This document shows, piece by piece, positions 16,442 through 18,275 of a stretch of DNA of 32,000 nucleotides. The stretch covers positions 2,100,001 to 2,132,000 of the forward strand of contig NZ_CP030918.1 in NCBI RefSeq assembly GCF_003324675.1, given 5' to 3'. The position numbers were made by a program, and so were the translations under genes. Under the pieces are notes generated by a model that had not been told where the DNA came from, did not search any database, and saw only the letters and a list, made by a program, of their open reading frames with translations. The DNA is from Paracoccus suum. GTDB lineage: Bacteria > Pseudomonadota > Alphaproteobacteria > Rhodobacterales > Rhodobacteraceae. The number at the start of each line of letters is the position of its first letter. Within the stretch, counting starts at the first letter, position 1.

Positions 16442-16996
16442 CTAAAGCTTGATTTCCTCCAACAGGCCGCCGTTGGCGCTGGTGCGCCGAAAGCGGGTCA
16501 GCCGCTTGCGCATCGTCTTGACCGCGGGCAGCACCAGGTACCAACCGCCCTGGCCCGTCCCGTCGTCAAGCGTGTTTGCGCTGGCCGTGAAGATGACGTC
16601 GAAGTCTGCCCGCCGCCATGGCGAGCAGATACCGACCAGAACGACCTTGTCGCCGCTGTCGAGGTCGGCCGGGGTCAGGGCGCTGTAGCCCTTGTTGATC
16701 AGACGGCGCAGCGCATCCTCTGACAGGCGCGCCCAGATTCCGAAGGCCACCGGGTAATCTCCGCGCCGCAGCACGATCACCTGCTTGTTCGCAGCGTGAT
16801 GGGTCAGCATCTCGACCAGCCGCAGACCGGTCTGTTGCGAGAAGGCGTCATCATGGACCGCGAGGTACAGCATGTCGCGGACCGAACCGCAGGTTTCGAC
16901 TTGCGGTATCGGCATGCCGGTAGGCGGCTCGCCCGGCAGCCGATTGACATCATTGCCGTCTTCACCGGCGATCATTCCTTCGGGTTTAACATTCAC
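16442..16996 (-). CDS. HlyC/CyaC-family toxin-activating lysine-acyltransferase homologue
   Basis: The core NKQVIVLRRGDYPVAFGIWARLSEDALRRLINKGYSALTPADLDSGDKVVLVGICSPW parallels E. coli HlyC as I remember it (ANQYVLLTRDDYPVAYCSWANLS...DWTSGDRKWFIDWIAPFG). GTG 16996 has GAAGGG 5 nt upstream. Confidence 0.7.
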   Translation of the reverse strand: MNVKPEGMIAGEDGNDVNRLPGEPPTGMPIPQVETCGSVRDMLYLAVHDDAFSQQTGLRLVEMLTHHAANKQVIVLRRGDYPVAFGIWARLSEDALRRLINKGYSALTPADLDSGDKVVLVGICSPWRRADFDVIFTASANTLDDGTGQGGWYLVLPAVKTMRKRLTRFRRTSANGGLLEEIKL

Positions 16997-17070
16997 ACTG
17001 CGGCCCTTCTTAAAACATTAACTGGCGCGATGTTTGCGCAACTATTCTCCAGCTTTGAACCAGACCTGAT

Positions 17071-17093
17071 TTAACAATTGATAGTTAACAATT
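17071..17093. repeat. direct repeat TTAACAATT x2 (14-nt period) in the AT-rich region upstream of the acyltransferase gene
   Basis: ttaacaatt occurs at 17071-17079 and 17085-17093, 75-97 nt upstream of the GTG at 16996. It may be an operator or UP-like element. Confidence 0.4.
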
Positions 17094-17126
17094 CGGAAAC
17101 TGTAAACTAAACAACCATAGGTAGAA

Positions 17127-17156
17127 AGGTCGCCCGGACTACGTGCCGGGCGACCT
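17127..17156 (-). terminator. rho-independent terminator after the Hint-domain gene
   Basis: Perfect 11-bp stem aggtcgcccgg / ccgggcgacct with an 8-nt loop. On the minus strand tttctac follows. It lies 31 nt past the stop at 17187. Confidence 0.6.
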
Positions 17157-17186
17157 CGTTAATTAAAATGCCCAGAAGATCGAAGG

Positions 17187-18275
17187 CTATTGAAGGGTCG
17201 CACCCGCATCGCGGTACTTGGCAATGATCTTTTCGGCCAGAGGGCCGCGCGCCACCGGGCGCACCAGATCCTGACGGCCGGAACGCACGATTTCCGCCAG
17301 TTCGGGGAAAAAGGCTTCCAATTCCGCAAGTTGGGCAGCGCCAACTTGGTTCCGGGATAGCGGCGATACACAGAAGCTCTCGCTCTGCACACCGTTCGCA
17401 GTGATGATCTCATGCCGATCAAACATGAAGTGGACATACTCGATACGGTTAACGTCTTGAACGATCTCGACCCCATCGAGTGCGATCAGGAAGCGGGCTG
17501 CGATCAGAACCTCGTCGCTGTCGAAATGCTGACGCGCGAGCGTGCCGCGCACGACGACGCGATGCAGTTGCGAGACCTGCAGGTCGCTCGCCGGCAGGCC
17601 GGTGCCGAGCGATCCGGCGCGGATCAGCACCGGCTTCCAGCTGGGGAAGTGAGTGAACTCGGCGCCCGCCACCACAGTCTTGCCGACCCAACGCACGGGA
17701 CGCGCGCCATTATCCAGCGTCGCGACCATGTCGCCGACATTGATGTCCGCGGCGCGGCGTTCGCTGCCGTCCGCCATGCGGATCAGGCTGTCGGCGGTGA
17801 AGCAGGTCTTCACGAAGGTCAGCGTGATCGTCATCGAGTCGCTGTCGGTGTGACCGCCGTGAAGGTACTCGAATGCATCGAGCTTGTAGGTCACGGTGAC
17901 GCTCTGCCCGATGGCCAGGTCGTGCCAGGCCTGGGACGAGGTGTCGAAGGTGAACTGGAAGGTGTCGTGCTGCCAGTCGTTCTCGTTCGGCCTGGTGGAC
18001 CGGCCGATGTCCTTCTGATCCGCGTCACCGTCCTTGTTGCTGCCGTTCCCGAGGGTCGCCGAGCCGACATTGGCGGGGTCAGAGGTCTCGGTCAGAGTAT
18101 ATTTATCCCATTCAGGGTTCGACGGATCGACCTTGCCTGAATTGGGGTTGGTGCGATTGAACTCGATCGAGATCGGGCCTGGCGTGCCGTTTTGATCAAC
18201 CTCGATGGTTTGGTTGATGTCGCCGGTCGTGTTCCCGAAAAGCGTGTCGTAACCGAGTACCGTGAAATTCGCCAT
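17187..18275 (-). CDS. Hint (Hedgehog/intein, bacterial intein-like, Hint_2-type) domain protein with a novel 157-aa N-terminal domain
   Basis: CFTADSLIRMADGSERRAADINVGDMVATLDNGARPVRWVG ... FDRHEIITANGVQSESF is the Hint_2 pattern common in Rhodobacterales. ATG 18275 (MANFTV) has GGAG 6 nt upstream. No signal peptide and no GGxGxD repeats. Confidence 0.8.
   Translation of the reverse strand: MANFTVLGYDTLFGNTTGDINQTIEVDQNGTPGPISIEFNRTNPNSGKVDPSNPEWDKYTLTETSDPANVGSATLGNGSNKDGDADQKDIGRSTRPNENDWQHDTFQFTFDTSSQAWHDLAIGQSVTVTYKLDAFEYLHGGHTDSDSMTITLTFVKTCFTADSLIRMADGSERRAADINVGDMVATLDNGARPVRWVGKTVVAGAEFTHFPSWKPVLIRAGSLGTGLPASDLQVSQLHRVVVRGTLARQHFDSDEVLIAARFLIALDGVEIVQDVNRIEYVHFMFDRHEIITANGVQSESFCVSPLSRNQVGAAQLAELEAFFPELAEIVRSGRQDLVRPVARGPLAEKIIAKYRDAGATLQ

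Follow-up and report, generated by a model that had tools for sequence, protein, structure and literature searches.

Toxin-activating acyltransferases (TAATs; Pfam PF02794) such as HlyC, CyaC and ApxC (PDB 4WHN) are known as activators of RTX (repeats-in-toxin) toxins, with one recent extension to CdiA. TAAT catalysis employs a His/Asp dyad, formed by His24 and Asp93 in ApxC and by His37 and Asp107 in CdiC; both CdiC dyad mutants resemble the deletion in competition assays, and the H37A mutant is substantially active if overproduced (PMC8510554). In class IV contact-dependent growth inhibition (CDI), the TAAT-family protein CdiC modifies a single specific Lys residue of its neighbour CdiA, which is not an RTX protein (PMC8510554). 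The Hint_2 proteins of the Rhodobacterales, with their B-type bacterial intein-like (BIL) domains, are described in another body of work (Amitai 2003 and Dassa 2004, as summarised in PMC7765530). They are abundant in this order and common in Paracoccus and its relatives; we found no biological role assigned to them, and full-text literature searches returned no paper joining Hint/BIL proteins with HlyC-type proteins. Here we describe a strictly coupled gene pair that links the two families, located in a 32,000-nt stretch of the Paracoccus suum chromosome (hereafter the window, along which all positions are counted). The pair encodes a Hint_2 protein and a TAAT-fold homologue that lacks the catalytic dyad. 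Its principal features are as follows.

17187 to 18275, minus strand: Hint-protein gene, 362 aa (AXC50021.1, DRW48_10250), with ATG at 18275 and GGAG before the start
17805 to 18275, minus strand: N-terminal cargo domain, aa 1-157, all-beta, with no signal peptide and no RTX repeats
17802 to 17810, minus strand: junction Lys156-Thr157/Cys158 (the slash marks the scissile bond), of the form F[VT]K-T/C-F, with the sole invariant Lys (8/8 members)
17370 to 17807, minus strand: Hint_2 (B-type BIL-like) autoprocessing module, aa 157-302 (PF13403, 28-sequence alignment)
17187 to 17369, minus strand: C-terminal tail of about 60 aa (aa 303-362), beyond the Pfam Hint_2 model
16442 to 16996, minus strand: TAAT/HlyC-fold gene of divergent sequence, 184 aa, starting with GTG behind a GAAGG motif
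16841 to 16855, minus strand: codons His48-Asp49-Asp50-Ala51-Phe52, in which Phe52 occupies the HlyC His23 position and residues 48-49 are [H/Y][D/E] in 8/8 members
16631 to 16633, minus strand: Gly122 codon, at the HlyC Asp92/ApxC Asp93 position; Gly in 9/9 subfamily members, Asp in 6/6 canonical TAATs

An earlier note on this stretch had read the pair as an HlyC-type acyltransferase re-paired with a Hint protein in place of an RTX toxin, an interpretation that our analysis supports in part. Both open reading frames (ORFs) are present on the minus strand as it described them, with the Hint gene upstream, the HlyC-like gene downstream and 190 nt between them. The existing NCBI names are 'toxin-activating lysine-acyltransferase' for the TAAT-like protein and 'Hint domain-containing protein' for its partner, and NCBIfam has no name for either. 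The GenBank call of the TAAT-like gene (AXC50020.1) is 7 aa shorter than the 184-aa ORF. A longer version of the Hint ORF, reaching up to 18353, was rejected, as the homologues give it no support.

The same order, Hint gene and then TAAT-like gene, occurs in six independent loci: the window, a second P. suum pair, and the related loci L002/L003, L004, L008 and L017. The conservation of adjacency, which the earlier note had named in advance as a check, is thus borne out. Full-length relatives of the Hint protein are few (52-73% identity), and the TAAT-like gene comes directly after them wherever flanks are available. The second P. suum pair shows 73-74% identity to the first and has consecutive accessions (AXC49527 and AXC49528), and the most divergent complete member, L017, has an intergenic gap of 39 nt. 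At protein identities of about 40-70%, the two genes are still adjacent and in the same order, and this holds for no fewer than two chromosomal sites. The pair adjoins a DivIC-like gene in L002, L003, L004 and L008 and a tRNA-Glu gene in the window; since these neighbours differ, the cassette evidently stays intact at different sites. Purifying selection acts on both genes: dN/dS is 0.14-0.66 in the TAAT-like gene and 0.18-0.36 in its Hint neighbour, at a dS that is near saturation. One lineage has additional genes behind the pair, in L002 (5390-9580; also in L003, 4060-7206): two that are co-oriented (357 and 376 aa, no Pfam match) and one for a 643-aa AAA ATPase. Neither L004 and L008 nor the window has these genes at that place.

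The TAAT-like partner is also very rare. In a word-index search the protein matched nothing beyond its P. suum paralogue and a single metagenome protein. When 1.84 billion representative proteins were searched exhaustively by HMM, five matched, of which three are further clusters of the same subfamily (one of them an 82-aa C-terminal fragment) and two are canonical-looking TAATs with E about 1e-4. Pattern scans of the GTDB species genomes (with the TAAT-like and Hint alignments) and of the JGI metagenomes (with the Hint alignment) returned no relatives, a negative of little weight since these scans need near-exact words and missed P. suum itself. The partner is absent from four metagenomic Hint_2 loci with other N-terminal domains (six-frame HMM scan) and, by record annotation, from two Paracoccus plasmid Hint_2 loci. 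The TAAT-like protein likewise has no tblastn match in 72,556 plasmids, 136 of which encode Hint_2 proteins. As Hint_2 loci with other N-terminal domains are without it, the partner tracks the cargo domain and not the Hint module. The two genes constitute a rare, conserved and co-inherited module, and their pairing is not due to chance. Three of the four metagenomic loci encode fusions of RTX and Hint_2 sequences (P0011, P0023 and P0024), which were considered as an evolutionary bridge to the TAATs and rejected, none of them having a TAAT neighbour.

This distribution bears on one alternative, in which the two genes are neighbours only incidentally and the target of the acyltransferase homologue is an RTX protoxin whose gene lies elsewhere in the genome. 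For P. suum, the negative result on RTX and type I secretion system (T1SS) genes covers the window only, and the two genes could be transcribed independently across the 190-nt spacer. Within the window, the pair differs from an RTX toxin operon of the hlyCABD type: it has no RTX neighbour, and in keeping with the earlier note no T1SS-type gene (ABC, HlyD or TolC) is found among the credible ORFs. The preservation of adjacency and order across the six loci, which represent at least two chromosomal sites, the duplication of the pair as a unit, the invariable presence of a Hint partner wherever the flanks of a subfamily member are available, and the restriction of the subfamily to three further clusters in the exhaustive search all speak against incidental adjacency, which we consider very improbable.

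The TAAT-like protein of the window matches PF02794 through its residues 49-127, with 27.3 bits and an E value of 3.6e-6 against a gathering cutoff of 25. Its subfamily scores 23-34 bits, one member falling below the cutoff, compared to 96-134 bits for canonical TAATs. A profile of eight subfamily members matches ApxC (4WHN) with E 7e-7, and hhalign aligns it to six canonical TAATs (HlyC, EhxC, a Ralstonia protein, a Sinorhizobium protein and two metagenomic proteins) with 98% probability. An AlphaFold2 (AF2) model built from a three-sequence alignment is poor (pLDDT 47.7), and its top Foldseek matches are still three chains of 4WHN. Judged by these profiles, the homology claimed in the earlier note is genuine but marginal, and the protein belongs to a small, very divergent clade. 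The core motifs [YW]P[VI]AF..WA, D[LW]xSG[DE] and xP[WF] are kept across the subfamily; in the window protein, DYPVA (aa 80-84), SGD (aa 114-116) and a His residue 33 positions before the YPVA Tyr (His48) are all present as that note had read them. Like the RTX activators HlyC, CyaC and ApxC, the protein thus belongs to the family and fold by profile, has a comparable size and central core, and is encoded beside its presumed target; unlike them, its subfamily has Phe and Gly in place of the catalytic His and Asp, only threshold Pfam scores, and an N-terminal extension of about 35 aa. This extension, which is not found in canonical TAATs, carries a conserved LPGxPPxGMPxxQ motif (window 16901-16939, aa 20-32) and could be a docking element. 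In Sinorhizobium meliloti pSymB (L005, 2945-6462) a canonical TAAT gene, with the Asp kept in FIDI, directly follows genes for a peptidase-domain ABC transporter and an HlyD-family adaptor, and no RTX gene is annotated within that 12-kb stretch.

The catalytic positions were located with an HlyC query that is 100% identical to annotated HlyC genes. HlyC aligns with ApxC without gaps, so that His23, Asn34, Asp92 and Arg120 of HlyC correspond to His24, Asn35, Asp93 and Arg121 of ApxC. By hhalign, by MAFFT and by Pfam profile coordinates, HlyC His23 falls on Phe52 of the window protein (HlyC 9-126 covers profile positions 1-119 and the window protein 49-127 covers 12-89, which places His23 and Phe52 together at position 15). 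His48, in which the earlier note had seen the catalytic His, lies four residues before Phe52, off the catalytic position, and is replaced by Tyr in P0041. The Asp of SGD, its less certain candidate for Asp93, is not the catalytic one either, because the catalytic Asp sits in FIDWIAPF, six residues past SGD; in phmmer, hmmsearch and hhalign alignments this position corresponds to Gly122 in VLVGICSPW. With His23 replaced by Phe52 and Asp92 by Gly122, the canonical dyad is absent. That note had said that catalytic residues missing from a proper alignment would count against its reading, and both are missing. Since neither of the two defining residues is found, the protein is to be classed as a TAAT-fold homologue and not as a functional TAAT, and on this alignment any acylation that it performs could not proceed by canonical TAAT chemistry.

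The loss of the dyad supports viewing the protein as a pseudoenzyme, in which catalysis has been lost and binding of a Lys-containing segment kept, so that it would act as a chaperone, inhibitor or adaptor that times the Hint reaction at Lys156-Thr157/Cys158 or hands the precursor to an export route. The exchanges of His for Phe and of Asp for Gly are fixed in 9/9 members, and the CdiC D107A mutant phenocopies the null mutant (PMC8510554). In the same direction, the substrate-side core motifs (YPVAF..WA, SG[DE] and SPW) are retained, LPGxPPxGMP in the N-terminal extension could serve docking, and purifying selection together with strict co-occurrence denotes a function which is not necessarily enzymatic. 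Residues shortly before Phe52 argue otherwise, as positions 48-49 hold an acid/base-type pair, which is His-Asp in seven of the eight members and Tyr-Glu in the remaining one; the exchange keeps the chemical class, thereby preserving a general-acid/general-base pair that may have a putative active-site role. General bases are often relocated or dispensed with in GNAT-fold enzymes (GCN5-related N-acetyltransferases), and a uniquely conserved Lys residue in the partner is the expected appearance of an acyl acceptor. On this evidence we regard a pseudoenzyme as less likely than not, and as an alternative to be taken seriously.

The partner is a Hint_2 protein (PF13403, 147 bits) with Cys158 at the start of the module, as the earlier note had identified it, and it contains no GGxGxD motif, again in agreement with that note, and no match to PF00353 (HemolysinCabind). 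Cys158, the Hint nucleophile, is invariant in 28 of the 28 aligned Hint_2 proteins, as are Ser235, His238, His282, His288 and Glu299, and Ser300 is nearly so. Block B reads Ser235-Gln-Leu-His238, and the module ends in ...ANGVQSESF, with no intein-type His-Asn. The module matches the definition of the B-type BIL domains, whose activity is to cleave off the flank on their N-terminal side (PMC7765530), and from its intact motifs it is apparently competent for autoprocessing. Like other B-type BIL/Hint_2 proteins, it follows a variable N-terminal domain, starts with Cys1, contains the block-B His and lacks the His-Asn end; unlike them, this subfamily alone has the Lys-Thr/Cys junction, the particular cargo domain and an obligatory TAAT-fold neighbour. 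The C-terminal tail (EL..LFPEL ... ARP) is conserved across otherwise diverse Hint_2 proteins, and its position resembles that of the adduct- or sterol-recognition region after the Hedgehog Hint module.

The AF2 model of the cargo domain consists entirely of strands (pLDDT 76.8, pTM 0.75), and Foldseek finds weak similarity to cadherin/Ig-like sandwiches (TM about 0.4). Its homologues are confined to proteins P0005-P0010 and the protein of L017. The domain contains six Lys residues (48, 58, 81, 88, 131 and 156), the number given in the earlier note; the Lys of SGK48, which that note had singled out, is not conserved, and Lys156 alone is invariant. The 22 aligned outgroup Hint_2 proteins all lack Lys at positions -1 to -3, as do the plasmid proteins L015 and L016. 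On this comparison, a TAAT-like neighbour and a Lys at position -2 relative to the scissile bond seem to occur together and only together. From the adjacency and the invariant Lys156 we take the neighbouring Hint protein to be the candidate substrate of the TAAT-like protein. The latter is most likely a dedicated partner that acts on the Lys156 junction, either as a non-canonical lysine acyltransferase or as a pseudoenzyme.

The Hint gene encodes a precursor made in the cytoplasm, a beta-sandwich cargo followed by Lys156-Thr157/Cys158, the Hint_2 module and the conserved tail. If it is an acyltransferase, the TAAT-fold protein would dock on the cargo or the junction segment and N-epsilon-acylate Lys156 with acyl-ACP (acyl carrier protein) as donor, using a non-canonical active site for which the conserved [His/Tyr]48-[Asp/Glu]49 pair is the candidate, because the canonical positions are occupied by Phe52 and Gly122. 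The Hint module would then form the Thr157-Cys158 thioester and free the cargo, which would carry its lipid two residues from the new C-terminus, a Hedgehog-like outcome reached by TAAT chemistry. We put forward this sequence of non-canonical acylation of Lys156 and subsequent Hint cleavage, yielding a cargo lipidated near its new C-terminus, as a tentative proposal that stands somewhat short of being probable. It draws support from the TAAT homology, the intact Hint motifs, the adjacency in six loci and Lys156 as the sole invariant Lys; from the purifying selection, the [H/Y][D/E] pair in 8/8 members and the CdiC/CdiA precedent; and from the absence of the partner at the six outgroup Hint_2 loci and in the plasmid collection.

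Several points weigh against acylation of Lys156. The dyad residues are replaced across the whole subfamily by the chemically inert Phe52 and Gly122, and the Pfam scores are far below those of canonical TAATs. ApxC Asn35 and Arg121, which we take to be active-site residues, do not align to conserved counterparts (Met63 stands for Asn35, and the C-terminal alignment is unreliable). The AF2 model, at pLDDT 48, gives no structure-level support for His48 and Asp49 in the active site. An export route is not evident, as the Hint protein has no signal peptide and the window no T1SS. Acylation and cleavage are both hypothetical steps, the former in particular because the canonical dyad is missing and SGK48 is not conserved.

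The thioester at the junction suggests a further and more radical alternative, in which Thr157-S-Cys158 replaces acyl-ACP as the donor and the whole cargo domain is moved onto an amine acceptor, for instance on a lipid head group, in the cell wall or on a protein Lys. TAAT chemistry converts a thioester and an amine into an amide (PMC8510554), such a thioester is provided at the junction by the Hint module, the occurrence of the partner follows that of the cargo family with this junction, and the exchange of Asp for Gly at position 122 would presumably widen the donor site. Such a capture is without precedent, however, would still require a general base and would leave the conserved Lys156 with no obvious role; moreover, the neighbourhoods of the related loci contain no conserved acceptor gene. 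We hold it to be improbable.

The pair has its nearest described parallels in the hlyC-type operons and in CdiC and CdiA. As in the latter case, a TAAT-family protein is encoded beside a non-RTX substrate, here a candidate one. Unlike the window pair, which is dyad-less and has a Hint protein as candidate substrate, CdiC keeps His37 and Asp107 and acts on a two-partner secretion (TPS) effector accompanied by CdiB. In class IV CDI the TAAT gene lies between cdiB and cdiA, an arrangement absent from the window, and no TPS or FHA domains are found in the window or in the related loci. The pairing with a non-RTX partner, as put forward in the earlier note, holds inasmuch as the window has no RTX or T1SS gene, and CdiC/CdiA deprives it of novelty as a case of a non-RTX TAAT substrate (PMC8510554).

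In Hedgehog maturation, C-terminal attachment of cholesterol is driven by the Hint module and a separate acyltransferase, Hhat, also acts on the protein. The likeness is by analogy only: a layout of cargo, Hint module and C-terminal region, a separate partner of acyltransferase type, and a predicted lipidated and released cargo. The partner in the window comes from an unrelated family, and the predicted lipid would be on a Lys side chain and not on the terminal carboxyl or the N-terminus. If Lys156 is indeed lipidated by a relocated active site, the product would be a bacterial Hedgehog-like released domain with a C-terminal lipid tag, and acylation would be a novel way of producing a bacterial protein that is lipidated and releases itself. 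More generally, the module bears on two questions, namely whether a TAAT fold deprived of its His/Asp dyad can still function as an enzyme or survives as a pseudoenzyme, and what becomes of the cargo in bacterial Hint proteins. The candidate acceptor Lys, two residues from the autoprocessing site, provides a direct experimental handle on both families.

The immediate surroundings of the pair include the following features.

16997 to 17186, strand not applicable: spacer between the two genes, 190 nt (39-229 nt in relatives), its sequence poorly conserved
16400 to 16425, strand not applicable: palindrome with perfect arms (13+13 nt), 17 nt past the TAAT-like stop codon
16171 to 16245, plus strand: tRNA-Glu gene flanking the cassette

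The palindrome is a possible terminator for the two-gene unit. The Hint-to-TAAT spacers of L002 and L008 contain GC-rich hairpins, and together with the window palindrome these point tentatively to a terminator or attenuator, placed either between the two genes or behind them. Around the pair, no Rfam families other than tRNAs and no promoter or terminator signals above chance were found. The GC content is 60% in 16246-18912, compared to 67% in the remaining window, which together with the tRNA-Glu gene is suggestive of an island origin for the low-GC stretch; no att-like direct repeats were found around it. PADLOC gives no match for the pair, and PHROGs gives weak matches (phrog_20210, of unknown function, with E 1.6e-5 on the TAAT-like core), so that a reading as a known defence system or phage gene is unsupported. 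The neighbouring ORFs are of housekeeping type (recJ, glpX, pgk, tyrS, anmK, an NDUFS4-like gene and a GNAT gene).

Farther along the window, a prophage-like element starts directly after a tRNA-Arg gene (19715-19791) and spans 19715-25640 and beyond. It includes ORF 19830-20405, which has the catalytic domain of a tyrosine integrase and is overlapped by ORF 20087-20923 in a different frame, so that the integrase is possibly frameshifted. It also encodes an HTH_17 excisionase-like ORF (20893-21138) and a homologue of Siphovirus Gp157 (25134-25640), and most of the remaining ORFs of this region, up to 32 kb, have no Pfam match. On the other side of the pair, two tandem tRNA-Asp(GTC) genes with the same Rfam scores lie 23 nt apart, at 12150-12226 and 12250-12326.

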